Shown here: one piece after another, positions 9,114 to 43,342 of the stretch
Position numbering within the stretch: the stretch's first letter is position 1
How the letters are laid out: the number at the start of each line of letters is the position of its first letter
NCBI RefSeq assembly: GCF_030384885.1
Contig: NZ_CP128613.1
DNA from: Escherichia coli
GTDB taxonomy: Bacteria; Pseudomonadota; Gammaproteobacteria; Enterobacterales; Enterobacteriaceae
Direction: 5' to 3' (one strand)
DNA: 64,000 nt
Notes under the pieces: generated by a model
Database searches by the model: none
What the model was told of the DNA's origin: nothing
Seen by the model: the letters and a program-made list of their open reading frames with translations, nothing else
Position numbers and translations under genes: made by a program

Positions 9114-9884
9114 CGTATGGCAGATACCTCTTCAACCACCGCTGGCGCACAAACGTTATTACGCGGGCTGGCGGTTCTTAATGCTGTTTATAACGGCTGC
9201 CATGACCTGAAAAGTATCGGCGAGTTCACCGGCACGACCCGGAGCACAACCCATCGTTTAGTCACCGTTCTGGTGGAACAACGCTACCTGCGCCACGTCC
9301 CAACGCAGGGCTACCAACTGGGCGCCAAACTGATCGAATTCGGTGCCAGAGCGCTGGAAAGCACCTCGCTGTACGAAATTGCGCTGCCCGTTTTGCAGCG
9401 TCTGGCCCGTTACACCCTGGACACCGTGCATCTGGGGATCGTTGAAGGCGACGAAGTGCTGTATCTGGAGAAGATCAACAGTCAGCGTGGGCTGGAAATG
9501 CGCTCACGCCCAGGCCATCGCATGCCACTGGCAATCACCGGCATCGGCAAGGCATTGATCCTCAACCGAACAGAAGAAGAGTGGCGCACGCTGTTTAAGA
9601 CCTGTGGTGATGAAACAAAACTGGGCACATTTATTCAGAACATGCGTCGTTATGCCGCCAGTGGTTTTGCTTTTGATCTGGAAGAGAACGAGCCGACTAT
9701 CCGTTGCGTTGCAGCGCCGGTTTACAACGCCCGGGATGAAATTGTGGCGGCTATTTCTGTCGCCAGTACCACTACGTATATGTCACTGGCGCGTCTGGAA
9801 GAACTGGCACCTTACGTCAAATCCTGTGCAGAAGAGATATCCGCTGAACTGGGCTGGGGTAAGCACGTCCGCAAAAATAAATAA
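9114..9884 (+). CDS. IclR/KdgR-family transcriptional regulator
   Basis: ORF 9030..9884; start trimmed to MADTSSTTAGAQTLLRGLAVLNAV (RBS AGGAG upstream); N-terminal HTH plus IclR-type effector domain (about 256 aa). Confidence 0.8.
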   Translation, partial: RMADTSSTTAGAQTLLRGLAVLNAVYNGCHDLKSIGEFTGTTRSTTHRLVTVLVEQRYLRHVPTQGYQLGAKLIEFGARALESTSLYEIALPVLQRLARYTLDTVHLGIVEGDEVLYLEKINSQRGLEMRSRPGHRMPLAITGIGKALILNRTEEEWRTLFKTCGDETKLGTFIQNMRRYAASGFAFDLEENEPTIRCVAAPVYNARDEIVAAISVASTTTYMSLARLEELAPYVKSCAEEISAELGWGKHVRKNK

Positions 9885-9907
9885 ACCATGACTAAAGGAA
9901 ACGGCTA

Positions 9908-10912
9908 ATGTCGGGAAACACCTCATTTATTGCCCTGGACTGGGGAACGTCATCGCTTCGGGCATGGCGTTTTGGCGACTCACCAAATCCACAAGAAAAA
10001 CGTGAATTCCCGTGGGGGATCATGAAATTACCCTCCCAGGCAGCAACACGTGAGGACGCTTTCCACGATACGTTTTTACGTGTCTGCGGCGACTGGCTGG
10101 CACAATCCCCATGCCCGATTCTGGCTTGCGGCATGATCGGCAGTGCGCAAGGGTGGCAACCCGCAGCTTATTTACCTTGCCCGGTCACTCTCGAGGGTCT
10201 GGCAAAGCAGTTGACGCCTGTTATCTACCAGCAGCAGACAATGCTGCACATCATTCCCGGCGTGATTAAAGAAGGTGAAATGCCCGAAGTGATGCGTGGC
10301 GAAGAGACACAAATCTTCGGTGCTATCTCGATGGAACCGGCCCTGCAAAACGCGCTCCGCCAGGGTATGCCTGTGCTGATTGGCTTACCTGGCACACATG
10401 CGAAATGGGCGGTAGTTGAAAACAACACCATTACCGATTTTCGAACCTTTATGACAGGCGAGTTATTTGATGTTTTATCCCGCCATTCGATTCTCGGTGC
10501 CACCATGCGTTCGGGAGATGAACCGCACTGGGATGCCTTCGCCCACGGGCTGACAGCGGCACAAGAGCATCATCAGACCGGATTATTATCGACGCTGTTT
10601 TCGACCCGTTCGCGCCTGCTGACCAGTAATCTTACGCCGTCCTCACAGGGGGATTACCTTTCAGGATTACTGATAGGCCATGAATTATGCGGTCTGGCAT
10701 CCAGTTTGCTACGTGATTTACCCGCCACAACACCGATCGCCTTAATCGGTAGCGCCACTCTGAACAGCCGCTATTCACAAGCATTCAGCCACGTTTTTCC
10801 CGACAGACAGCTACACGCCATTCCTAATGCCACTGAACAGGGGTTATGGCGAATCGCCCACGCTGCCGGGCTACTCTCCACCAACGCCAGGGAATGTACT
10901 CATGCCATTTAA
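9908..10912 (+). CDS. 2-dehydro-3-deoxygalactonokinase (DgoK)-family sugar-acid kinase
   Basis: 334 aa; motifs ALDWGTSSLRAW, MRGEETQIFGA, GTHAKW...ITDFRTFMTGELF align with DgoK hallmark motifs. Confidence 0.8.
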   Translation: MSGNTSFIALDWGTSSLRAWRFGDSPNPQEKREFPWGIMKLPSQAATREDAFHDTFLRVCGDWLAQSPCPILACGMIGSAQGWQPAAYLPCPVTLEGLAKQLTPVIYQQQTMLHIIPGVIKEGEMPEVMRGEETQIFGAISMEPALQNALRQGMPVLIGLPGTHAKWAVVENNTITDFRTFMTGELFDVLSRHSILGATMRSGDEPHWDAFAHGLTAAQEHHQTGLLSTLFSTRSRLLTSNLTPSSQGDYLSGLLIGHELCGLASSLLRDLPATTPIALIGSATLNSRYSQAFSHVFPDRQLHAIPNATEQGLWRIAHAAGLLSTNARECTHAI

Positions 10913-11531
10913 TACGCTTTTGCAAAAAACCGGGTTAGTCGCCATTTTACGCGGCGTGAAACCGGATGAGATTGTCGCCATCGGTGAAAAGCTGTATGCC
11001 GCTGGATTTCGCCTGATTGAGATTCCCATGAACTCGCCGGAGCCGTTGCAAAGTATCAGTTTACTGCGCGACGCCCTGCCTAAGGACTGCCTGGTCGGAG
11101 CCGGAACGGTGCTTTCGGTGGAGCAAGTCGTCGCGGTTAAAGAGGCTGGAGGCCAGATTATCGTAATGCCGCATTGCGATACTGCGGTGATCCGTCGTGC
11201 CCGTGCGCTGGGTATGTATTGTGCGCCTGGCGTCGCTACGCCCACCGAAGCTTTTGCTGCCATTGAACATGGCGCCAATGCCATCAAGCTGTTCCCGGCT
11301 GAACAAATTACGCCTGAAGTCACCAAAGCCTGGCGTGCGGTTATTCCACAATCCGTTCCGATGTTACCGGTTGGCGGTATCACTCCAGACACAATGGCGC
11401 GTTATCTGAGCCACGGCGCAAACGGCTTTGGCCTCGGTTCTGCGCTATATCGCCCCGGCATGACGCCAGAGCAAGTCTATGAAAATGCAGTACTGTTTAT
11501 GAACGCATGGAACAATTTAAATAGCAAATAA
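10902..11531 (+). CDS. KDPGal/KDPG aldolase (DgoA/Eda-family)
   Basis: ORF 10827..11531; start trimmed to MPFNTLLQKTGLVAILRGV at 10902, overlapping the kinase stop (translational coupling); strong resemblance to DgoA. Confidence 0.8.
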   Translation: MPFNTLLQKTGLVAILRGVKPDEIVAIGEKLYAAGFRLIEIPMNSPEPLQSISLLRDALPKDCLVGAGTVLSVEQVVAVKEAGGQIIVMPHCDTAVIRRARALGMYCAPGVATPTEAFAAIEHGANAIKLFPAEQITPEVTKAWRAVIPQSVPMLPVGGITPDTMARYLSHGANGFGLGSALYRPGMTPEQVYENAVLFMNAWNNLNSK

Positions 11532-11555
11532 CTGATAAATAAGGATATAAAAGCA

Positions 11556-12530
11556 ATGATAAAACATCTTACCTTACCGAAAAAAATGGCTGCAATGGTA
11601 CTTCTTGCCGGCGCTGCCCTCAGCACTGCGCCTGTGCAGGCGGCCTCCTGGCCAACCAAACAGATCGAGTTAGTCGTACCCTACGCGGCCGGAGGCGGTA
11701 CGGATCTGGTTGCCCGTGCCTTTGCTGATGCCGCCAAAAACCATTTGCCCGTCAGCATCGGGGTTATCAATAAACCTGGCGGTGGCGGCGCTATCGGCCT
11801 GAGTGAAATCGCCGCTGCCCGCCCTAACGGTTACAAAATGGGTTTAGGCACGGTTGAACTGACCACCCTTCCCAGTCTCGGAATGGTGCGTTTTAAAACC
11901 AGCGACTTTAAACCCATTGCCCGTCTGAATGCGGATCCTGCGGCTATCACCGTCCGTGCCGATGCACCGTGGAATAGCTATGAAGAATTTATGACTTACG
12001 CCAAAGCGAATCCCGGAAAAGTACGCATTGGTAACTCAGGCACCGGAGCAATCTGGCATCTGGCGGCAGCTGCACTGGAAGACAAAACGGGCGTGAAGTT
12101 TTCTCATGTCCCATATGACGGCGCAGCCCCTGCCATTACAGGCCTGTTAGGCGGGCATATTGAAGCGGTTTCCGTAAGCCCAGGTGAAGTTATCAATCAT
12201 GTGAAAGGCGGCAAGCTGAAGACACTGGTAGTGATGGCGGATGAACGTATGAAAACCATGCCTGACGTCCCGACGTTAAAAGAGAAAGGCGTTGATCTCT
12301 CCATCGGCACCTGGCGCGGCCTGATTGTGTCGCAAAAAACGCCGCAGGATGTGGTTGATGTTCTGGCTAAGGCCGCAAAAGAGACGGCTGAAGAGCCTGC
12401 ATTCCAGGATGCTCTGCAAAAGTTGAATCTCAACTATGCATGGCTTGATGGTGCCAGCTTCCAGACCCAAATCAACGAACAGGAAAAGTACTTTGACGAG
12501 TTACTAACTCGGCTGGGCTTGAAAAAATAA
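11556..12530 (+). CDS. tctC: Tripartite tricarboxylate transporter substrate-binding protein (TctC/Bug family), periplasmic
   Basis: 324 aa with N-terminal signal peptide MIKHLTLPKKMAAMVLLAGAALSTAPVQA; TctC-like fold motifs. Confidence 0.8.
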   Translation: MIKHLTLPKKMAAMVLLAGAALSTAPVQAASWPTKQIELVVPYAAGGGTDLVARAFADAAKNHLPVSIGVINKPGGGGAIGLSEIAAARPNGYKMGLGTVELTTLPSLGMVRFKTSDFKPIARLNADPAAITVRADAPWNSYEEFMTYAKANPGKVRIGNSGTGAIWHLAAAALEDKTGVKFSHVPYDGAAPAITGLLGGHIEAVSVSPGEVINHVKGGKLKTLVVMADERMKTMPDVPTLKEKGVDLSIGTWRGLIVSQKTPQDVVDVLAKAAKETAEEPAFQDALQKLNLNYAWLDGASFQTQINEQEKYFDELLTRLGLKK

Positions 12531-12546
12531 TCCCGAGGTACGGTCG

Positions 12547-13053
12547 ATGAACACAAAACAGTCTGTTGCTCAACTCGCCGTACCGCACCGCAAGCGCTTT
12601 TCATCCACTGTGGTGGTGGCGCTGTTACTTTGTGTGGTTGCTGGCGCGGTGATAATTAATGCCGCTGATTTTCCAGCAACTGCCATTGAAACGGATCCCG
12701 GTGCAAGTGCCTTCCCTACTTTCTATGCCTGCGCTCTGATTGTGCTCGCTGTCTTACTGGTGATACGCGATCTTTTGCTGGCAAAACCAGTCCCTTGCGC
12801 CAACGCACAGGAAAAACCGGCATTCAGGAAAACGGCAACGGGAATTGCGGCAACCGCGTTTTATATTGTGGCGATGAGCTACTGCGGTTATCTCATTACT
12901 ACTCCTGTTTTCCTCATCGTCATTATGACGTTGATGGGCTACAGGCGATGGGTACTCACACCGGGTATTGCGCTGCTGTTAACGGCAATCCTCTGGTTGC
13001 TGTTTGTCGAAGCGTTACAGGTGCCATTGCCTGTCGGCACATTTTTCGAATAA
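12547..13053 (+). CDS. tctB: Tripartite tricarboxylate transporter small membrane subunit (TctB family)
   Basis: 168 aa, four hydrophobic segments; position between tctC and tctA. Confidence 0.7.
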   Translation: MNTKQSVAQLAVPHRKRFSSTVVVALLLCVVAGAVIINAADFPATAIETDPGASAFPTFYACALIVLAVLLVIRDLLLAKPVPCANAQEKPAFRKTATGIAATAFYIVAMSYCGYLITTPVFLIVIMTLMGYRRWVLTPGIALLLTAILWLLFVEALQVPLPVGTFFE

Positions 13054-13065
13054 CAGGGGCCTGCA

Positions 13066-14556
13066 ATGTTTGAAAGTGAACTTTTAACTCAGGGGTTTTC
13101 GACATTACTCAGTAATCCTCAGGCGCTGCTGTTTGCCACGTTTGGAGTGATACTGGGTATTATGATTGGCGCTCTGCCTGGCCTGACAGCGACCATGGGT
13201 GTGGCGATTTTGCTGCCTTTCACCTACGGCATGGAGCCTGTTTCTGGCTTGTTGATGATTTGCGGTGTCTTTTTTGGTGGTGTGTATGGTGGTTCTATCA
13301 CCGCAATTTTGCTCAAAATTCCCGGTACGCCTGCCGCCGCTGCCACCGCCATTGACGGTTATGAGTTAACGAAGCAGGGAAAAGCCGGGCTGGCATTAAG
13401 TGCCGCCACGTTCTCTTCTTTTAGCGGTGGAACGCTCAGCATTATCGTATTGATGTTTCTCTCTCCGGTACTTGCCAGTTGGGCGTTGAAATTTAGTGCC
13501 TCGGAGTCCTTCGCCCTGGCAACCTTCGGACTAAGTATTATTGCCAGTATTTCCGGTGAGTCACTGATTAAAGGGCTGATTGCCGGGGTTGGCGGATTAC
13601 TGATCGCAACGATAGGCCTCGATCCGATGGGCGGTTTTCCACGCTTTACGGGCGGGTTTGTGGAACTGATGAATGTGCCATTTATCCCGGTGATGATTGG
13701 TCTGTTTGCTGCTTCAGAAGCGTTCCGTTCTATGGAACAAAATCAGCATATTCGTCAGAGCGCGAACGTGGCTATCGGCAGTCTGTTACTGCCCTGGCAA
13801 ACGCTACGCCGCATCGCATTAACCATTTTGCGCTCATCAGGATTAGGGGTTTTTATCGGCATGATCCCCGGTGCGGGGGCAGATATTGCAGCTTTTGTTG
13901 CCTATAACGAAACTCGTCGTTTCAGTAAGACGCCTGAAAACTTTGGTAAGGGTGAGATTAAGGCGGTGGCCTCCTGTGAGGCAGGCGCGAATGGCTGCAC
14001 CGGTGGCGCATTGTTACCTATGCTGACGTTGGGGATCCCAGGCGATGCGGTAACTGCCATCATGCTGGGCGCGTTAACGTTACAAGGGATGCAGCCAGGC
14101 CCACTGATGTTTACCGACCACGGCGATATGGTTTATACGCTGTTTGTCGGCATGATCTTTTGTTACTTCATGCTGCTAGTTCTTGGACTGCTCTCTTTGA
14201 AAGTCATCGGTAACGTGGTGAAGATCCCCGGCAATATTCTCACGCCGATGATCCTCGCACTTTGTGTGGTCGGGACTTATGCGTTGAACAATAGCCTGTT
14301 TGATGTTGGCATTATGCTGATTGCAGGCGTGGTGGGCTATTTCATGCAAAAAGGGGGGTATCCGGCATCACCCGTAGTGCTGGCATTGATTATGGGGCCA
14401 ATGGCGGAAAGTAATTTTCGCCGTGCGCTGTCGCTTTCTGGTGGGTCACTCGACTTTCTGTATACCCGACCGATAACCCTGGCATTGCTGACACTGGCAG
14501 CCTTTACGCTACTGACGCCAATAATACGCAAAATTATGCGCTTACGGCGTCAGTAA
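13066..14556 (+). CDS. tctA: Tripartite tricarboxylate transporter large permease (TctA family)
   Basis: 496 aa polytopic membrane protein; TctA-like glycine-rich hydrophobic segments. Confidence 0.85.
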   Translation: MFESELLTQGFSTLLSNPQALLFATFGVILGIMIGALPGLTATMGVAILLPFTYGMEPVSGLLMICGVFFGGVYGGSITAILLKIPGTPAAAATAIDGYELTKQGKAGLALSAATFSSFSGGTLSIIVLMFLSPVLASWALKFSASESFALATFGLSIIASISGESLIKGLIAGVGGLLIATIGLDPMGGFPRFTGGFVELMNVPFIPVMIGLFAASEAFRSMEQNQHIRQSANVAIGSLLLPWQTLRRIALTILRSSGLGVFIGMIPGAGADIAAFVAYNETRRFSKTPENFGKGEIKAVASCEAGANGCTGGALLPMLTLGIPGDAVTAIMLGALTLQGMQPGPLMFTDHGDMVYTLFVGMIFCYFMLLVLGLLSLKVIGNVVKIPGNILTPMILALCVVGTYALNNSLFDVGIMLIAGVVGYFMQKGGYPASPVVLALIMGPMAESNFRRALSLSGGSLDFLYTRPITLALLTLAAFTLLTPIIRKIMRLRRQ

Positions 14557-14610: not shown

Positions 14611-14710
14611 GCCTGATGCGCTGCGCTTATCAGGCCTACCACAGAAATGCAATATATTGAATTTGCATGCTTTTGTAGGCCGGGTAAGGCGATCACGCCG
14701 CATCCGGCAT
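14611..14710. repeat. REP/BIME cluster (two inverted REP units: GCCTGATGCGCTGCGCTTATCAGGCCTAC ... GTAGGCCGGGTAAGGCGATCACGCCGCATCCGGCA)
   Basis: Characteristic enterobacterial REP palindromes read from the sequence. Confidence 0.6.
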
Positions 14711-14741
14711 GAACAAAGCACACGTTAACAACAATCGGAAT

Positions 14742-14768
14742 GCTCCCCTAAGCCAGGGAGCTTTTTTT
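14742..14768 (+). terminator. Hairpin (GCTCCC..GGGAGC) followed by T7 run; rho-independent terminator between the tct operon and the 3' end of udp
   Basis: Stem-loop plus U-tract on the + strand, immediately abutting the udp stop. Confidence 0.4.
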
Positions 14769-15792: not shown

Positions 15793-16605
15793 ATGGCAAC
15801 AACACAACAATCTGGATTTGCACCTGCTGCATCACCTCTCGCTTCGACCATCGTTCAGACCCCGGATGACGCGATTGTAGCAGGCATCACCTCTATCCCT
15901 TCACAAGGGGATAACATGCCTGCTTACCATGCCAGACCAAAGCAGAGCGATGGCCTACTACCAGTGGTCATTGTAGTGCAGGAAATTTTTGGCGTGCATG
16001 AACATATCCGCGATATTTGTCGCCGTCTGGCGCTGGAGGGGTATCTGGCTATCGCACCTGAACTTTACTTCCGCGAAGGCGATCCGAATGATTTTGCCGA
16101 TATCCCTACGCTGCTTAGCGGTCTGGTAGCAAAAGTGCCTGACTCGCAGGTGCTGGCCGATCTCGATCATGTCGCCAGTTGGGCGTCACGCAACGGCGGC
16201 GATGTTCATCGCTTAATGATCACCGGATTTTGCTGGGGTGGACGTATCACCTGGCTATATGCTGCGCATAACCCGCAACTGAAAGCGGCGGTGGCATGGT
16301 ACGGCAAACTGACAGGCGATAAGTCGCTGAATTCACCGAAACAACCTGTTGATATCGCAACCGATCTTAACGCGCCGGTTCTCGGCTTATATGGTGGTCA
16401 GGATAACAGCATTCCGCAGGAGAGCGTTGAAACCATGCGCCAGGCGCTGCGGGCTGCTAATGCGAAAGCAGAGATTATCGTCTACCCGGATGCCGGGCAT
16501 GCATTCAACGCCGATTATCGCCCGAGCTATCATGCTGAGTCGGCGAAAGATGGCTGGCAGCGTATGCTGGAGTGGTTTAAGCGGTATGGTGGGAAACGGA
16601 ATTAG
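15793..16605 (+). CDS. ysgA: Dienelactone hydrolase-family protein YsgA (DlhH)
   Basis: ORF 15727..16605; start trimmed to MATTQQSGFAPAASPLAS...; alpha/beta hydrolase motif GFCWGG. Confidence 0.85.
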   Translation: MATTQQSGFAPAASPLASTIVQTPDDAIVAGITSIPSQGDNMPAYHARPKQSDGLLPVVIVVQEIFGVHEHIRDICRRLALEGYLAIAPELYFREGDPNDFADIPTLLSGLVAKVPDSQVLADLDHVASWASRNGGDVHRLMITGFCWGGRITWLYAAHNPQLKAAVAWYGKLTGDKSLNSPKQPVDIATDLNAPVLGLYGGQDNSIPQESVETMRQALRAANAKAEIIVYPDAGHAFNADYRPSYHAESAKDGWQRMLEWFKRYGGKRN

Positions 16606-16996
16606 TTTCCTCTTATTCTATATTTGAGATGGTGAGTGAACGAATGCGTTTTGCTGCCATCTCTGTCCCCCAAAAAATAATCAGTATGAATTGATTGGAG
16701 AGCACGACTCCGCTATTTGACCTTAAGAAAGTCGGCAAGTCATAGTCATAAATGAGTCTCTTCACTGGCAGACACCTTAAAGATTTACCATCAACTCCCA
16801 TTCTCAAACAAACATTAATTATTATCAACACATTCACATTAATTATAAATTACCTCAGACCTTCCTGATAAAAAGATATTAAAGTGAAACATTTTGTTTT
16901 TCACATTTTAGTTCATCCCTTTTAGGCGTAAATAAAGGTAAAAAATAACAATACTATTTTTCTTTCACAAAAAAATTAACAAAAGGTTTTTCAAGG

Positions 16997-18145
16997 ATGA
17001 GTGATATTATCTACCTGACCATAACCGGAGAACAACACGGATGTATTTCCTCTCGTTGTGGAACGAGCACATCAATAGGTAATCGCTGGCAGATTGGTCA
17101 TGAAGATGAAATCTTCGCATTCTCGCTCTCTAATAGTATTACGAATACAGGAAAAGGGTCACATTTGCATGGCCTTAGTTTCTGTAAGTTGATTGACAAA
17201 AGCTCCCCGTTACTTATTAACGCTATTAACAATAACGAGCAGTTGTTCATGGAGTTTGACTTCTATCGGATCAATAGATTTGGTCGATGGGAGAAATATT
17301 ACAACATTCAACTCCGCGGCGCGCTCTTATCAGCAATCAATCACCTGTTTACGGAGAACAATCTGGATACAGAAACCATCACTGTCAGTTATGAATATAT
17401 ACTCTCCAGGCATCTGATTGCTAATACTGAATTTAGTTATTTGGCATTTCCCGATAACTACAATCGTCTGTTTATACCACGGCCAAAAACTAAAGATGAT
17501 AATGGCCTCAAAACACTCAATAGTAAAGCTGTTGGCAGACTGCTTGCTGCTGGCGGCATATACAATGGGAATATCGAAGGATTCAGGGAAACAGCAAACA
17601 AGTTGGGGGGAGATGCACCTGCTGGTTACGATCAAGTTATGGATAACAAAGGGTTACTCATCGCTGGTGCTTCAATAGTTGCTGGAGCAGTTCTGGGGAG
17701 AATGAGACTCCCTGATTTGGAATCACTTGAGCATTTCGGAGCCAGAGGAGCAGTATCAGGAAGACCATTTAATCCCGACCTTGCCGGTGGTCCAATAGAA
17801 AATCTGACGACAGATGGCGTAACAATCAACAGGGAAGGTATCGCTATTGTTGAAAAACACATAGCCAGATTTGGTCATGACCCTGTAAATGAAGTGATGA
17901 TCAATAGACTGAAAGACATTGAGAAAGGAAAAATCCCCCCAGAACAAGTAGATCTTAACTTCTATACTCATGAATGTCGGGAATATCAGCGTTACTGTAA
18001 TCTTGGTTGGGAAACAGGACAACCTGATGGTGACGCAGGCTATGCACTCTGGAATCATACGCATACTGCTACTCTAGAAGATTATAAACTTAAGGGAGAA
18101 CTTAATGACTTATACCACCAGGACGCACTTGACTATGATAACTGA
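16997..18145 (+). CDS. Hcp (T6SS tube protein TssD) N-terminal domain fused to a C-terminal extension of unknown function, Hcp-ET-like; not associated with a T6SS gene cluster
   Basis: 382 aa; residues 1-155 carry the Hcp hallmark ...HGLSFCKLIDKSSPLLINAINNNEQLFMEFDFYRI...; residues about 156-382 are an extension with no Hcp counterpart; RBS AAGGA upstream; AT-rich. Confidence 0.75.
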   Translation: MSDIIYLTITGEQHGCISSRCGTSTSIGNRWQIGHEDEIFAFSLSNSITNTGKGSHLHGLSFCKLIDKSSPLLINAINNNEQLFMEFDFYRINRFGRWEKYYNIQLRGALLSAINHLFTENNLDTETITVSYEYILSRHLIANTEFSYLAFPDNYNRLFIPRPKTKDDNGLKTLNSKAVGRLLAAGGIYNGNIEGFRETANKLGGDAPAGYDQVMDNKGLLIAGASIVAGAVLGRMRLPDLESLEHFGARGAVSGRPFNPDLAGGPIENLTTDGVTINREGIAIVEKHIARFGHDPVNEVMINRLKDIEKGKIPPEQVDLNFYTHECREYQRYCNLGWETGQPDGDAGYALWNHTHTATLEDYKLKGELNDLYHQDALDYDN

Positions 18146-18380
18146 AACTGAAATTAACATACTGAAAGTTATGGCTGAGAAAGATATAAACTGGAACTGG
18201 ATGAATCTCGATCGCACACTATCTATAAGGCAAATTCCAGGATTCGGTAATGTTGTTAACATTGTTAACAAATTAGCTAACGAGGGTTTGGTTATTATTG
18301 AGGATAGCGGACATAAGTCTATGCCTCACTACCACGTTACTGATAAGGGATACAATCTCGTGAAAAGTGAGAATAAATAA
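18105..18380 (+). CDS. Small protein overlapping the 3' end of the Hcp-fusion gene; candidate cognate immunity protein (alternative start at 18135)
   Basis: 91 aa ORF with GGGAG RBS; overlaps the upstream stop, typical of toxin-immunity pairs; no recognisable family. Confidence 0.5.
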   Translation: MTYTTRTHLTMITETEINILKVMAEKDINWNWMNLDRTLSIRQIPGFGNVVNIVNKLANEGLVIIEDSGHKSMPHYHVTDKGYNLVKSENK

Positions 18381-18528
18381 CGTAGCGTTGATTACTGAAC
18401 AAATCGCTCAGGATTATATTTTGCGAAAAAAATGATTCGGTTATTTCTGTGTCTGAACGGCCGCAGATAGCAAAATGGCTTCCGGTGATGGAAGCCATCA
18501 GATTATTGGCAAAGTGCGTGTTGTTCAT

Positions 18529-18559
18529 GCCGGATGCGGCGTGAACGCCTTATCTGGCC
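18529..18559. repeat. REP element (GCCGGATGCGGCGTGAACGCCTTATCTGGCC)
   Basis: REP consensus palindrome downstream of metE. Confidence 0.55.
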
Positions 18560-18666
18560 AACTAAATCTTGAAAATTCAATAAATTGAATAAATTATGTA
18601 GACTTGGTATCAGGCAGTTTTGCCTCTTTCATCGTACTGCAATTTACAGTGACTCGTTAATACTCA

Positions 18667-20928
18667 TCACCCCCGACGCAAATTCTGCGCCGCCTGCACC
18701 ATGTTCGCCAGTGCCGCGCGGGTTTCTGGCCAGCCGCGCGTTTTCAGACCACAGTCCGGGTTGACCCACAGACGCTCTGCCGGAATGCGTTTTGCCGCTT
18801 TCTTCAGCAGGGCTTCAATCCATTCCACGCTCGGTACGTTTGGCGAGTGAATGTCATAGACGCCAGGACCGATTTCATTTGGATAATCAAACTCTTCAAA
18901 CGACTCCAGCAACTCCATGTCGGAACGCGAGGTTTCGATTGTGATGACGTCTGCGTCCAGCGCCGCAATCGAATCCATGATGTCGTTGAACTCGCAGTAA
19001 CACATGTGAGTGTGGATTTGCGTGTCATCTTTCGCTACGGCAGCGTTGATACGGAAAGCCTCCACGCCCCACTGGAGATAGGCATCCCAGTCGCTGCGAC
19101 GCAGCGGTAAACCTTCGCGTAGCGCCGGTTCATCAATCTGGATGATGCCAATTCCAGCGGCTTCCAGATCGGCCACTTCATCACGAAGCGCCAGCGCAAT
19201 TTGTTTGGCGATGGTTTCACGGCTGACATCTTCACGCGGGAACGACCAGCAGAGAATGGTCACCGGGCCAGTCAGCATCCCTTTCACCGGTTTGTCGGTC
19301 AGCGATTGCGCATACTTTGCCCACTCCACGGTAATCGGTGCCGGGCGGCTAACGTCACCAATGACAATCGGCGGTTTCACGCAGCGGGAACCGTAGCTCT
19401 GTACCCAACCGTTTTGTGTAAAGACAAAACCGTCGAGGTGCTCACCAAAGTATTCCACCATGTCATTACGCTCGGCCTCACCATGCACCAGCACATCCAG
19501 ACCCAGACGTTCCTGCTCAACAATGGCCTGCTTGATATGTTCTGCAATGCCCGTACGATAGTTGTTGGCGTCGAGATTACCCTTTTTGAAATCCAGACGC
19601 AGGGTACGGATTTCTGTGGTTTGCGGGAAAGAGCCAATCGTGGTGGTCGGCCACGCGGGCAGTTTAAAACGCGCACGCTGGGCTTCAGCACGCACTTCAT
19701 AGACATTCGCACGCTGACTGTCCTGGGCGGTGATCGCCGCCAGACGCTTTTCTACTGCCGGATTATGTACACGAGTAGAGTGACGACGCGCCTGAATCGG
19801 TGCACTCCACTCTGCCAGAGCTGCCGTGTCACCACTGTTCAGCGCATCGCGCAGCAATGCCAGTTCATGGCATTTTTGCAGGGCGAAGGCAAACCAGCTT
19901 TTCACTTCTGCATCAAGACGCGTTTCCACGCTCAGGTCGATAGGGCTGTGCAGCAATGAGCAGGAAGATGCCACCCACAAATCACGTTTGCCGACAATGT
20001 CCTTAATTTGCGCATATTTCTCGGTAAGATCGGCGCGCCAGACGTTACGACCATTGATAAGACCCGCAGACAGCAGCCAGTCAGAAGGCAGACGCTTGTG
20101 CAGTTCAGCAACGTCATCTTTACCATGTACGAGATCGACATGCAGCCCCTGAACAGGCAGCGCAGTAATGGTGTCGAGGTTTGGCGTTACGCCTTCAAAA
20201 TAGGTGGTCAGCAGCAGTTTCACCTGGCCCTGGAGCGCGTCGTAAGCGGGTTTATAGGCGTCCAGCCACGCCTGCGGCAGTTCCAGCACCAGTGCGGGTT
20301 CGTCGATCTGTACCCACTCAATGCCACGTTTTGCCAGTTCTGCCAACACTTGCTGATAAACCGGCAGAATGTCGTTTAGCAGGCTCAGGCGATCAAACTG
20401 TTCACCTTTCACTTTACCCAGCCACAGGTAGGTAACCGGTCCCAGCAGCACGGGCTTGACCTTGTGGCCCAGCGCCAGCGCCTCGTCCACTTCCTCCAGC
20501 AGCTGCGTCCAGGTCAGTTTGAACTGTTGGCCTTTAACGAACTCCGGCACCATGTAGTGATAGTTGGTGTTAAACCATTTGGTCATTTCCGCTGCCGCCG
20601 CAGGTTCGCCAGTCGGCGCACGTCCACGACCAATACGGAACAGGGTGTCGATATCTACCGAACCATCTTTGTTCTGATGACGTGGCGGAACGTTACCCAG
20701 CAGCAGACTGGTGGTCAGTACATGATCGTACCAGGCAAAATCGCCCACCGGCAGCAGGTCGATACCCGCTTGCTTTTGTTGATCCCAGTGACGAGCACGC
20801 AGTTCACGCCCTACCGCCAGCAGTTCTTCACGCGTGGTGTTCCCGGCCCAATAACTCTCTTGCGCTTTTTTCAGCTCGCGACGCAGGCCAACGCGAGGGA
20901 AACCGAGGGTGTGATTCAATATTGTCAT
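18667..20928 (-). CDS. metE: Cobalamin-independent methionine synthase
   Basis: 753 aa [30 protein letters not shown]... Confidence 0.95.
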
Positions 20929-33687: not shown

Positions 33688-33769
33688 GCATTGTACACTC
33701 GAGGAGGCCAGACAAACTGGGACTGGCTACACAGCTGGAAAATCATCAGATAAATGAAGGGAAACAAAA

Positions 33770-34672
33770 ATGAAAAAAACGCTCGCAACGTTATTTTTAT
33801 TAACGTGTCTGGGATCATCATCCGCCTATGCGGATAACGCTTTGATTTTACAAACTGATTTTAGCCTGAAAGATGGTGCCGTCTCGGCGATGAAAGGGGT
33901 CGCATTCGGCGTTGACCATAATCTTAAAATCTTTGATTTAACACACGAAATTCCACCGTATAACATCTGGGAAGGCGCTTATCGCCTGTATCAGACTGCC
34001 AGTTACTGGCCGCAAGGTTCGGTGTTTGTTAGCGTGGTCGATCCGGGCGTAGGCACTGACCGTAAATCGGTAGTGCTGAAAACCAAAAACGGTCAGTACT
34101 TCGTTTCACCAGATAACGGTACGCTCACTTTGGTGGCACAAACTCTGGGTATTGATAGCGTCCGGGAAATCGATGAAAAAGCTAACCGCCTGAAAGGTTC
34201 TGAAAAGTCATATACCTTCCACGGTCGTGACGTGTATGCCTACACCGGTGCACGCCTGGCTTCCGGGGCGATCACGTTCGAACAGGTGGGGCCAGAGCTT
34301 CCTGCAAAAGTTGTCGAACTTTCTTATCAGAAAGCAAAAGCAACAAAAGGTGAAGTGAAGGGAAATATCCCGATTCTCGATATTCAGTATGGCAACGTCT
34401 GGAGCAATATCAGCGACGAGTTGCTGAATCAGGCAGGAATCAAACTCAACGACACGTTGTGTGTGACCATTTCCGAAGGTTCCCAGAAAAAATACGAAGG
34501 GAAAATGCCGTATGTCGCAAGCTTCGGCGATGTGCCGGAAGGCCAGCCGATGGTGTATCTGAACAGCTTGTTGAATGTTTCCGTGGCGCTGAATATGGAT
34601 AATTTCGCGCAGAAACATCAGGTTGCGTCTGGTGCTGACTGGAATATTGATGTGAAGAAGTGCGCTAAGTAA
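33770..34672 (+). CDS. Secreted DUF62-family protein (SAM hydroxide adenosyltransferase / SAM hydrolase fold) with N-terminal signal peptide
   Basis: 300 aa; signal peptide MKKTLATLFLLTCLGSSSAYA; DUF62 hallmarks ILQTDFSLKDG, VVDPGVGTDR, VSPDNGTLT, TFHGRDVYAYTGARLASG. Confidence 0.75.
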   Translation: MKKTLATLFLLTCLGSSSAYADNALILQTDFSLKDGAVSAMKGVAFGVDHNLKIFDLTHEIPPYNIWEGAYRLYQTASYWPQGSVFVSVVDPGVGTDRKSVVLKTKNGQYFVSPDNGTLTLVAQTLGIDSVREIDEKANRLKGSEKSYTFHGRDVYAYTGARLASGAITFEQVGPELPAKVVELSYQKAKATKGEVKGNIPILDIQYGNVWSNISDELLNQAGIKLNDTLCVTISEGSQKKYEGKMPYVASFGDVPEGQPMVYLNSLLNVSVALNMDNFAQKHQVASGADWNIDVKKCAK

Positions 34673-40350: not shown

Positions 40351-40538
40351 TATGGATTGCCTGTAAAGTTCATCGCTTTCTGCTTTCTATCATCGCAGGA
40401 GAAGACGTAAAAGCAAGCGTTTAGCGACTCTTTATGAAGTCTGAAAAATGAGGAATTGCTGCGAGTATAACGCTTACACGTGGTGATTTATGTTTTGCTG
40501 GTAGTTTCGTGATCGGCACCTCGCGCCAGGATGGCTTT

Positions 40539-42017
40539 ATGCACTATCGCAATGTGGTTTGTTTGTTGTCTTGTTCGTTATTCTTATCCCCGGCATGGGG
40601 ATGTCGGCTTTCCGCGCCTGAACATAATATTTACCAGAAACAGGGAAAAGGCGTGGTGTACCTGCGCCCTTATAAAGAAACAAATCTTTCTCTACCTGAC
40701 GTGAATTACAAGAGTTTGCGTCGTTTACCTAATTTATTAATAGACGCAACAACACAAGATGAATGGAATAAAGAACCACCTCTGACTGATCTAACAACTG
40801 ACAACCTCTATGAGGGCGCACAAGCCTGGTATCCCCATTACTCCTGGCATAGCGATGGTCGCTATATCCTCTACGCGGGTGAAGTAGTGCAAAATCCTCA
40901 CGACGCACCACCCGTCGATATCGCCTCATTCAAGGCATGGGGAGATTTTGCCGCGGATAAACACAGTCTCTATTTTGAAGGCAAGCGCACCGATAACAAT
41001 GGCGGGGGAAATAGCTTAGATATCAAAACACTGCATCAGGTGGAATTCCGGCCTCCCTGGGATCCTGACTTACTGGGGCTGATATTACGTGACGCTAATT
41101 TCTTGTATATCAATGGGCATCGCCTCGCAGATCCCGATAGTTTCCGTGTGCTGGCACAAAAGTCATGGGATCAGCGAGGAAAGTTTTCTACCGCGTTTAA
41201 TCCCTGTGTGGCTATGCCATTTGGCCCTTGGGATACCCTGGCTCGTACACGGACCAAAATCCTGATCAACGGCGAACAGCTTGATGCCGACCCGGACACC
41301 TTTTCCGTCGTGCGCTGGATGCCCGGCTCACTCTTGACCTGGCGTGATAAAAACGGGCTACAGCGTAAAGTCCTCGACAAGGAAAATCTGGCGTGGGATG
41401 AAGATTTAACAAAGCACTGTCTGGATTTTTCTCTGCTGGAAAAGAAAGTGTTCTGGCGTAAAGGGCCTGCTTGTAAACAGGAAGAAGTACCGGGGCTCGA
41501 TCCTGAACAGTTCCACCCCATCAGTGATGCTGTCGCCCAGTATCAGGATTCGCTTTATACCATCATCGAAACAGAGTCTGGTGACCGCAACCTGGAGATC
41601 GTAAAACTTGATGATCCCAATCTTATTATCAACAAACGTTTCAACGCCGGGAAACGCCATGGCTATTTACTTACGCGTGCCGAAGGGTGGCCAAACCATT
41701 CCGGTTTACACGTGTTTGAATCTGACGGACCGCTGATCTTACTGGATAACCACTCTCCGGATGAACGCGAAGCCCATCTTGATGACCATCCCTTTTTGCG
41801 CAGATGGTATGCCCGCGATAACCGCTACGTTTACAGCTTTGATGGCGCGCAGCTCTGGCGATACCGCACCGCGGATCCGAAACAAGTTCGCTTAATCTGG
41901 AAGGAACAACATTCGGGATATGGCTATGGCGTAAATTACAAAACGGGATATCTGGACGGAAAAATTACCGATGACGGCGAATTTATTCCTGCCCCGCGCA
42001 ATGAGGCGACAAAATGA
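40539..42017 (+). CDS. Secreted repeat protein, paralog 1 (DKNYY-like repeats; unknown function)
   Basis: ORF 40509..42017; start trimmed to MHYRNVVCLLSCSLFLSPAWG (signal-like); internal repeats such as DANFLYINGHRLADPDSFRV / TKILINGEQLDADPDTFSVV. Confidence 0.65.
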   Translation: MHYRNVVCLLSCSLFLSPAWGCRLSAPEHNIYQKQGKGVVYLRPYKETNLSLPDVNYKSLRRLPNLLIDATTQDEWNKEPPLTDLTTDNLYEGAQAWYPHYSWHSDGRYILYAGEVVQNPHDAPPVDIASFKAWGDFAADKHSLYFEGKRTDNNGGGNSLDIKTLHQVEFRPPWDPDLLGLILRDANFLYINGHRLADPDSFRVLAQKSWDQRGKFSTAFNPCVAMPFGPWDTLARTRTKILINGEQLDADPDTFSVVRWMPGSLLTWRDKNGLQRKVLDKENLAWDEDLTKHCLDFSLLEKKVFWRKGPACKQEEVPGLDPEQFHPISDAVAQYQDSLYTIIETESGDRNLEIVKLDDPNLIINKRFNAGKRHGYLLTRAEGWPNHSGLHVFESDGPLILLDNHSPDEREAHLDDHPFLRRWYARDNRYVYSFDGAQLWRYRTADPKQVRLIWKEQHSGYGYGVNYKTGYLDGKITDDGEFIPAPRNEATK

Positions 42018-43342
42018 AAGGTCAAATAATCACAGTTGCACTCATCCTGTTGGGGCACACATTTCTGACACCTGCTGTACAGGCCATAGGGTTCGACTAT
42101 TACAATGATCACGGTGTTATGTCTTACGGTAAAGGTTATGGGGAGGATGAGAAAATTATTGCCCAATTTCCGAAGATGAACAGAGCCGATTTGCGCCTTG
42201 TGACAAATATATCCGGGAAGCGGGAGTTAGTGGAAGGCTATATACCCACCGATGAAATAAGCATAAAAAATGAGGAATACCACTGGGTGACAGACGGCCA
42301 CGTTATTCTCTGGCGTGGCAAAATCGTTAGCAATCCACCGGGAACACCCACTGTCGATATTGCCAGCTTTCAAGCTATGGGCCGCTTCGCGGTCGATAAA
42401 TATAGCCTCTATTTTGACGGACAGCGCACCGAAAGTAATAGCGGCGCGTCACGTGTTGATCTGGCGACACTAAAAGCTATCGAAGGTAACTCTACCACGC
42501 TGGTGGATAGTAAAAATCTCTACTTGTCCGGTCGACGTCAGGGGAGCAGCAGTAATGTTACTGTATTAGAAAAAAGATGGTGGGGTATTAATCCACGTCT
42601 TATGAGTGTAAACAGAAATTTGTATTCCAATGATCTGCTTATCCGCAGTGGGCAGAATATTTATTTAAATGGCGTTCACCTTACGGCAAATGCAGACTCA
42701 TTTGAGATAATTCGCTGGATACCTCATTCACTGCTGGTTTTTCGCGACAATAAGGGTATGCATCGTTATCCCTTTGGTCAATTATCAGGCAAGGCAATAC
42801 CCGTAGATGATGACGTCTCTTTTGAAGTAGGGGAAAGTCGCGTTCGCTGGCGTAAACAGCTCACGCCCGACCGTCAGTGGAGCCAGTGGATAGACCTACC
42901 AAGTATTGAACCTGAACAATTTCATCTGATTACTGACAATATTGCGCAGTATAAAGATCGGCTGTATGTAACAAAATTATCGACTTTTGGTGAAGACCAG
43001 CTTGAAATAATCCCGCTGGATTCGCCAGACCTGGTCATTGATCACTCATTTAATCGCGGCAAACAGCATGCTTACTTTATCCACCAATTACGGTCACGCA
43101 AGAGCGTGCAAATTATTCCAACTAACAGCCCGCTAACTAAAAACGATCGCTTTGCTTATGACGATCGCAATGTTTATACATGGACCGATACAGAGGTAAG
43201 GATTACACCCTCCCCCTGCCCAGCGAAAACATACGTCAGAGAAAAGAATGTCCGTGAAATTCATAACAGCGACATTATTATTCCGGTGACGGAGGAATCG
43301 TGCCGGAACGCAGCAGCAGACGGGCAAACTTTGAAGCCCTGA
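42014..43342 (+). CDS. Secreted repeat protein, paralog 2 (DKNYY-like repeats; unknown function)
   Basis: 442 aa; signal peptide [24 protein letters not shown]; start ATG overlaps the upstream stop (ATGA); shares blocks VDIASF.A.G.FA.DK.SLYF.G.RT and EPEQFH.I.D..AQY.D.LY with paralog 1. Confidence 0.7.

Follow-up and report, generated by a model that had tools for sequence, protein, structure and literature searches.

What lies between ysgA and metE in those Escherichia coli chromosomes where the two genes are not close neighbours, and how did it come to be there? We addressed this question in a stretch of 64,000 nucleotides from contig NZ_CP128613.1 (assembly GCF_030384885.1), referred to below as the window, in which these two convergent core genes are separated by about 2 kb of DNA. 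This segment is, in our view probably, a horizontally acquired islet of 2.07 kb whose cargo is an orphan type VI secretion system (T6SS) effector-immunity module. The module consists of an Hcp-ET gene, which encodes an Hcp tube domain fused to a predicted C-terminal toxin, and of an overlapping gene for a putative immunity protein of 81 amino acids (aa).

An AT-rich islet replaces the ysgA-metE junction

In K-12 MG1655, metE and ysgA are convergent and lie 39 bp apart, the spacer being a hairpin terminator. A preliminary description of the window had taken the two genes to be immediate neighbours in K-12, as they indeed are, and had placed about 2 kb of AT-rich DNA between them here. Compared to K-12, the islet spans 16596-18668 (2,073 bp) and takes the place of the whole junction. 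The left break, at 16595/16596, falls within the final codons of ysgA (15793-16605, plus strand; dienelactone hydrolase family), whose last three codons differ from K-12: the protein ends in YGGKKSL* in K-12 and in YGGKRN* in the window. The right break, at 18668/18669, falls in the stop codon of metE (18667-20928, minus strand), which is TAA in K-12 and TGA in the window. The replaced K-12 DNA amounts to about 55 bp and comprises the ysgA tail, the 39-bp spacer that forms the terminator hairpin, and the second base of the stop codon of metE. The left break was also seen at the population level, where a probe starting at 16480 loses homology at probe position 112-116 in genomes with an empty site. 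The limits first proposed, 16606-18560, captured the segment but missed its edges, since the true start lies about 10 bp further left and the true end about 108 bp further right.

The base composition of the islet is foreign. Its GC content is 0.393-0.397, compared to 0.515 over the whole window; ysgA stands at 0.539 and metE at 0.555. A windowed GC check identified it as the lowest-GC 2-kb stretch of the 64 kb (0.393), about 4 standard deviations under the mean, with only 0.08% of sliding windows as low. The A/T tract singled out in the preliminary description (16840-16996) is 24% GC and belongs to the lowest 0.08% of 157-bp windows. Silencing by H-NS, with which the preliminary description connected such DNA, may apply here, the trait observed in that respect being the AT-richness. 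This tract lies in an AT-rich region upstream of the Hcp-ET gene (16807-16996, plus strand), which is common to all versions of the islet and is presumed to be its promoter or regulatory region. In a scan for promoters and terminators, the numbers of sites were not above those of shuffled sequence.

We then compared 5,426 complete E. coli genomes. The empty K-12-type junction is present in 3,537 of them, while the Hcp-ET gene is found in 846 (about 16%). The islet is therefore accessory DNA, which K-12 and 65% of the complete E. coli genomes lack, and together with its composition this supports the earlier proposal of horizontal acquisition; the opposite view, that the same two genes occupy this position in essentially all E. 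coli including K-12, failed on this comparison.

We found no significant direct or inverted repeats flanking the islet, and its genes include no integrase or tRNA. A 16-nt repeat common to the islet and metE was rejected as a signature, being at chance level (E = 0.88), and an origin by transposition or integration was likewise rejected because no such signatures were detected at the borders. Given these negative results and the position of both breaks at the ends of core genes, we infer transfer by homologous recombination in the flanks: the islet resembles a segment swapped in through recombination between neighbouring core genes more than a cut-and-paste insertion.

An Hcp tube protein ends in a predicted polymorphic-toxin killing domain

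The Hcp-ET gene (16997-18145, plus strand) is intact in the window, encodes 382 aa and is annotated tssD by RefSeq; exactly the same protein is found on 503 public contigs. Residues 1-147 (16997-17437) form an Hcp/TssD tube-protein domain. This assignment relies on a match to Pfam T6SS_HCP (PF05638; 7e-14 over aa 6-135), on a score of 121.6 bits for NCBIfam TIGR03344 (cut-off 58.9) and on matches to Hcp chains of the Protein Data Bank (PDB; 2e-13). The C-terminal extension of 235 aa starts with a linker (aa 148-246; 17438-17734), read from the sequence and without any family match, which contains the Gly/Ala-rich hydrophobic stretch LLIAGASIVAGAVLGRM (aa 220-236; 17654-17704). The last ~136 aa (aa ~247-382; 17735-18142) correspond to a domain, which we call the killing domain and for which homologues and an AlphaFold2 (AF2) model were obtained.

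An exhaustive HMMER scan with this domain returned 473 representative homologues, 345 of them below 1e-10. The domain lies at most 20 residues from the C-terminus in 131 of the 142 representatives examined, in proteins ranging from ~105 to 5,214 aa. The N-terminal parts of 35 carriers include S-type pyocin (7), PAAR (3), LysM (3), RHS repeats (2-3) and Cloacin (2) domains, as well as ColA_N and WXG100. Several Pseudomonas species have S-type pyocins that terminate in this domain. On small ColE1-type plasmids of E. coli and Klebsiella, it ends a bacteriocin of ~750 aa with an "S-type pyocin domain" and is 46-49% identical to that of the window; the bacteriocin gene is followed by an overlapping gene of ~90 aa and then by a colicin lysis gene, as in a classical colicin operon. 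This range of carriers and the C-terminal placement mark it as a putative polymorphic-toxin killing domain.

An AF2 model of the domain, built with 40 homologues on a fragment starting at aa 237, reached a predicted local distance difference test score (pLDDT) of 92.9 and a predicted template modelling score of 0.86; the first 10 residues of the fragment were below a pLDDT of 50. Apart from two short beta bridges close to the N-terminus, the model is made up of helices, which gives an all-alpha predicted fold. Ten residues are invariant among the homologues (H288, R291, R304, D319, Y323, H325, E329, R332, W352 and H356, numbered on the full-length protein). The pattern H...D...H-E-x-x-E...H carried by the modelled helices suggests a metal site, and a metal-dependent nuclease would be the most likely biochemical activity. 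None of the five published Hcp-ET toxin clans was matched by the domain (Pfam, E <= 10). A literature search for DUF8093 gave no papers.

The names given by NCBI to this gene and its fragments are inconsistent ("colicin", "HNH endonuclease", "TssD"). We rejected the HNH endonuclease or colicin DNase assignment attached to the gene fragments because no profile matched and the predicted fold is all-alpha. A "non-HNH DNase" killing domain without Pfam accession is listed for pyocin S3 by Sharp et al. (S1 Table; PMC5536347). On circumstantial grounds, the domain of the window may be the same one.

The overlapping gene most likely encodes the cognate immunity protein

A second gene, encoding 81 aa (18135-18380, plus strand), overlaps the end of the toxin gene by 11 nt. 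The ATG at 18135 is favoured as its start both by RefSeq and by alignment with a second allele (see below), in which the overlap is 4 nt. The AF2 model of the 81-aa protein (pLDDT 92.8) has the topology H-b-H-H-b-b-H, a predicted winged helix-turn-helix. Its homologues form 38 clusters, all in the Enterobacteriaceae.

A more distant pair was found in the cyanobacterium Microcoleus vaginatus (CP031705.1), where a stand-alone homologue of the killing domain (136 aa) is followed by an overlapping gene of 160 aa. The 160-aa protein resembles the 81-aa protein in its N-terminal half (E = 3e-7) and has a HicB-like antitoxin domain as its C-terminal half. This pair appears to use the same two domains as a toxin-antitoxin system.

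Based on the gene overlap, the co-variation with the toxin tip, the existence of orphan copies (both described in the next section) and the synteny in Microcoleus, the 81-aa protein is most likely the cognate immunity protein of the Hcp-ET toxin.

Toxin tip and putative immunity gene vary together

Alignment with strain RIVM_C036569 revealed a second allele of the module. The two sequences are 95-100% identical from the ysgA junction to ~17800, after which identity falls to 86%, 73%, 72% and 59% through the toxin tip. The polymorphic module, i.e. toxin tip plus immunity gene, covers 17800-18380 (plus strand), where identity to the other allele is 59-86%. At the protein level, the N-terminal 270 aa of the toxins are about 97% identical, while the small proteins are 59% identical. 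In RIVM_C036569, a toxin of 377 aa is followed by its cognate small gene (85 aa) and then by a second small gene, 86% identical to that of the window; in the window, the toxin is followed by a small gene of this second type only. In the second allele, the DNA upstream of the orphan gene showed no remnant of a window-type toxin tip.

The toxin-tip and immunity allele of the window (at least 95% identity) occurs in 118 of the 5,426 genomes, and the second allele accompanied by an orphan copy of the window-type immunity gene in ~728. All the toxin-carrying genomes examined also hold one or two immunity genes. With the toxin gene in about 16% of genomes and immunity genes alongside it, strains may split into compatibility groups for this toxin.

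Intact toxin genes are present in strains 536, WCHEC4533 and MLI114, in addition to the window. The nearest complete genome, 2013C-4282, is otherwise identical to the window and differs by one base in a homopolymer of the toxin gene (17935-17940, plus strand), which is C6 in the window and C5 in 2013C-4282; its copy is consequently annotated as a frameshifted pseudogene. The C5 reflects either a genuine slip that inactivates the gene or a mistake in assembling the homopolymer.

The site is a modular plasticity region shared with the tkt1 island

The interval between ysgA and metE is already known as an insertion site. A published insertion between these two genes is the 16-kb tkt1 island of extraintestinal pathogenic (ExPEC) and avian pathogenic (APEC) E. 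coli of group B2 (Li et al., 2012, PMC3349570; GR 29, PMC12928451). The end of this island that faces metE consists, in B2 strains, of the Hcp-ET gene with two small genes, and the corresponding open reading frames (ORFs) are listed as hypothetical (APECO1_2644-2646) in PMC3349570. The window has a different left junction, and this junction, which marks islets holding the Hcp-ET module alone, is found in 363 of the 5,426 genomes. The segment next to it (16596-16806) is specific to these "Hcp-ET-only" islets and absent where the islet ends the tkt1 island: the alignment of the window to RIVM_C036569 begins in ysgA, whereas that to the APEC O1-type island begins only at 16807.

Altogether, the site has at least five occupancy states. 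Some carry tkt, phosphotransferase system and carbamate-kinase cargo without the Hcp-ET module, and in one state lacking Hcp-ET the islet-type right end directly follows an 8.5-kb metabolic module. Strain 4/0, which has a tkt island and no Hcp-ET gene, carries beside metE 45 bp copied from the 3' end of ysgA and, after them, a K-12-type terminator. This end indicates that the metabolic island entered within the ysgA tail and gave ysgA a new 3' end. Genomes of the 4/0 type appear to amount to roughly 13%, as estimated from even spacing in the genome listing.

The interval is therefore a modular plasticity region, which holds one effector family with two toxin-tip/immunity alleles and an orphan immunity gene. 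The preliminary description had proposed an insertion hotspot for effector/immunity cassettes. The variability of the site and the presence of an effector/immunity-type pair were both confirmed, but a hotspot specific for such cassettes was an overstatement, as only one effector family is seen here and the other cargo is metabolic. A related Hcp-ET gene with its small gene occurs elsewhere, namely on chromosome CP081105.1 of GenBank, where mnmE lies on one side of it and a gene for a major facilitator superfamily transporter on the other, which indicates that the two-gene unit is a cassette in its own right.

The right end carries a probable metE terminator and a later REP insertion

The hairpin noticed in the preliminary description at about 18477-18500 was located at 18475-18498 (minus strand). 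It has a 10-bp stem (-16 kcal/mol; z = -4.5 on the minus strand) followed by UUUUGC, and is kept in all islet-type right ends. With its U-run on the minus strand, it looks like the terminator of metE in islet strains, replacing the one of K-12. The last 36 bp (18631-18666) are common to RIVM_C036569, to the APEC O1-type island and to one locus without Hcp-ET.

Between these two elements lies a segment of 132 bp (18499-18630), absent from the same three loci, which contains a repetitive extragenic palindromic (REP) element with its core at 18523-18559. Its hairpin is predicted at -22 kcal/mol (z = -4.9). Searches against Rfam gave nothing beyond sub-threshold matches to REP-derived families, here naRNA4. 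The ~100 bp around the REP recur in 5,425 of the 5,426 genomes, at a median of 11 places each. The REP reported earlier at 18529-18559 is thus real, but it does not mark the metE-proximal edge of the islet: since it sits in a segment that other versions lack, it is a later, secondary insertion in the lineage of the window.

A second REP copy (14632-14747) lies between a Tct permease gene and udp, in the opposite orientation and with 79% identity over 101 bp to 18499-18630. It has sub-threshold Rfam matches to naRNA4 and also to ES036/CssrF.

Proposed mode of action

There are no T6SS genes in the window. In 2013C-4282, a T6SS cluster is located beside tRNA-Asp (aspV) and includes tssA-C, tssE-H, tssJ, tssK and tssM, icmH/DotU, VgrG, Rhs and two Hcp genes. 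The 159-aa Hcp of this cluster is 41% identical to the N-terminal domain of the Hcp-ET protein and the other Hcp 28%. We propose that a T6SS with genes at another locus, such as the aspV-linked one of 2013C-4282, incorporates the 382-aa protein into its Hcp tube or carries it on that tube, and that the protein would be fired into neighbouring bacteria, where its C-terminal domain would kill or arrest the target cells. The overlapping winged-helix protein would bind and neutralise the toxin in the producer and its kin. The anatomy, the domain homologies, the distribution among genomes and the T6SS of 2013C-4282 were observed, while toxicity, neutralisation, T6SS dependence and biochemical activity of the window pair are inferred.

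At the population level, toxin tip and immunity gene would be swapped jointly by recombination, giving rise to the two alleles; the one missing from the window is followed by an orphan copy of the immunity gene found here. Inactivation hits the toxin gene repeatedly while immunity genes persist, and homologous recombination in the core genes on either side is the probable route by which the islet passes from strain to strain.

Evidence against the proposal and alternative explanations

Several observations weigh against a functional effector-immunity module. The toxin gene is broken in many genomes: it is frameshifted in 2013C-4282 (C5/C6), cut short by a nonsense codon in APEC O1:K1:H7, interrupted by IS3 in O145, runs into an IS1 junction in Shigella sonnei, and is reduced to fragments in other Shigella species and in UTI89. 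With so many broken copies, the module may often be inactive. No plus-strand promoter match was obtained in our scan of the AT-rich leader. In 2013C-4282, the aspV T6SS cluster includes a VasL-domain gene annotated as frameshifted, and a group II intron and an ISAs1 pseudogene are found just past its VgrG-Rhs end, which makes it uncertain that the T6SS works in this lineage. The killing domain has no match in Pfam, NCBIfam or PDB sequences, and no relative with a solved structure was found. Lastly, the 81-aa protein is labelled "MarR family transcriptional regulator" by NCBI, and BLASTP showed no similarity between it and the immunity proteins that accompany this killing domain in the plasmid bacteriocins.

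The alternative that survives best is that the module is, in this strain, a silent or decaying remnant, held in silenced AT-rich DNA or encoding a toxin that is not secreted, and that the immunity gene alone matters, as protection against firing neighbours. We consider this rather unlikely. Part of the evidence fits it. The toxin gene was disrupted independently in many lineages, the small gene is intact in every copy examined and the orphan copies of the window's immunity allele are retained in the ~728 genomes mentioned above. The leader has an extreme AT content, a different orphan hcp operon of E. coli, hcp2B of APEC, is repressed by H-NS (PMC5874247), and the frameshifted VasL-domain gene points in the same direction. 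Against it stand the intact copies of the window, 536, WCHEC4533 and MLI114, and the exact 382-aa protein on 503 contigs, and the single-base difference from 2013C-4282 lies in a homopolymer, where it could be an assembly error.

It is improbable that the segment is ancestral E. coli DNA deleted from K-12-like lineages, the empty junction being the derived state. Such a history would agree with borders that show neither target-site duplications nor inverted repeats and have no integrase or tRNA, with occupancy of the site in 35% of genomes, and with a right-end hairpin and last 36 bp that are common to several occupancy states, one of them without the Hcp-ET gene. It is difficult to reconcile with a GC content 12 points under that of the flanks and with an empty junction that possesses a well-formed terminator and a ysgA tail of its own. 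Moreover, the K-12-type terminator and 45-bp ysgA fragment on the metE side of strain 4/0 show insertion into a K-12-type site, and the related cassette of CP081105.1 sits at another locus.

Finally, the NCBI name, the predicted winged-helix fold and weak profile matches to MarR/PadR chains could make the small gene a MarR-like transcription factor and the Hcp extension a non-toxic adaptor or cargo-binding domain, but this is very improbable, as the matches to MarR and PadR structures are at E >= 0.025 and the MarR model scores 14 bits against a cut-off of 90, the protein has just 81 aa, lacks the MarR dimerisation helices and changes in parallel with the toxin tip, and the C-terminal domain also ends classical bacteriocins in colicin-type operons with lysis genes as well as PAAR, Rhs and WXG100 toxins.

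Implications

An acquired Hcp-ET effector-immunity module at this site has several consequences. It would place a small, self-contained module for interbacterial competition at a known plasticity site of E. coli and would turn those "hypothetical" ORFs that lie nearest to metE in the tkt1 island of ExPEC into an Hcp-toxin/immunity unit. For genome annotation, the "MarR family regulator" label on the small gene is probably wrong. The killing domain is common in bacteriocins and in secretion-system effectors, yet it has neither a family assignment nor a solved structure.

The site and the effector class have already been described, and the only part that could be new is the toxin domain with its winged-helix partner. 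Tentatively, and with the odds rather against it, we suggest that the ~136-aa domain is an enzymatically uncharacterised all-alpha toxin fold with an invariant His/His-Glu-x-x-Glu/His/Asp cluster, used across phyla and neutralised by a winged-helix immunity protein. This fold may be deployed in colicin-like bacteriocins, S-type pyocins, Hcp, PAAR and Rhs effectors of T6SS, WXG100 proteins of the type VII secretion system type, and cyanobacterial toxin-antitoxin pairs. If this is true, and if the domain is not the pyocin S3-type DNase, it would represent a new and widespread antibacterial activity and a new mode of toxin-immunity recognition, for which E. coli would offer a tractable two-allele system with orphan immunity genes.

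Other features of the window

To the left of ysgA, the ORF list of the window places udp on the minus strand. A second islet (9117-14556) lies between rmuC and udp and carries genes for an IclR regulator, a 2-dehydro-3-deoxygalactonokinase, a 2-dehydro-3-deoxy-6-phosphogalactonate aldolase and a tripartite transporter of the Bug/TctB/TctA type. K-12 and O104:H4, in which rmuC and udp are adjacent, lack this islet, and its GC content of 0.526 is not atypical. An islet of ~5 kb with 6 ORFs at the rmuC-udp position was mentioned by Li et al. (2012; PMC3349570).

Two further features were read from the annotation of a near-identical genome. A gene of the S-adenosylmethionine (SAM) hydrolase / SAM-dependent halogenase family is located between yigE and uvrD (~33768-34670), and two adjoining genes for "DKNYY family protein" lie between lptM and cyaY (~40537-43340), a position which in K-12 presumably holds no genes. 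The DKNYY pair may be another small accessory insertion.

Comparison with known systems

The closest functional parallel is provided by the Hcp-ET effectors of the Enterobacteriaceae (Ma et al., 2017, Virulence 8:1189), which in E. coli are described by reviews (PMC6730261, PMC6099711) as antibacterial toxins delivered by T6SS2 and encoded with downstream immunity genes. The likeness extends to the aspV-linked T6SS cluster of 2013C-4282, to an Hcp tube domain fused to a C-terminal toxin, which is predicted in the window, to an immunity gene directly downstream, which is putative here and may be duplicated or orphaned, and to a locus that may lie outside the T6SS cluster. The window protein may be among the ~350 sequences catalogued by Ma et al. 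(2017). An identity with Hcp-ET1, an experimentally shown DNase reported from O104:H4, was rejected because O104:H4 2011C-3493 has an empty ysgA-metE site.

Nuclease colicins, klebicins and S-type pyocins (PMC5536347) share a homologous killing domain with the Hcp-ET protein, at 46-49% identity. They differ in their receptor-binding and translocation domains, in place of which the window protein has a T6SS tube protein as its presumed means of delivery, and the plasmid bacteriocins differ also in their immunity proteins, dissimilar by BLASTP to the 81-aa protein.

The tkt1 island occupies the same chromosomal site as the islet of the window. In contrast to the island, the window has the 2-kb effector module alone, joined to ysgA by a different left junction, and is devoid of the metabolic genes tkt1, ptsG-like, hxlB, arcC and yahEFG-like.

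Compared to the polymorphic toxin loci of the Rhs and CdiA type, the carrier here is Hcp, only two alleles are seen at the locus and no orphan toxin-tip fragment is kept. What the module has in common with these loci is the replacement of toxin tip and immunity gene as a unit, with a sharp drop of identity at the junction, and an immunity gene that is kept downstream of the newer module.

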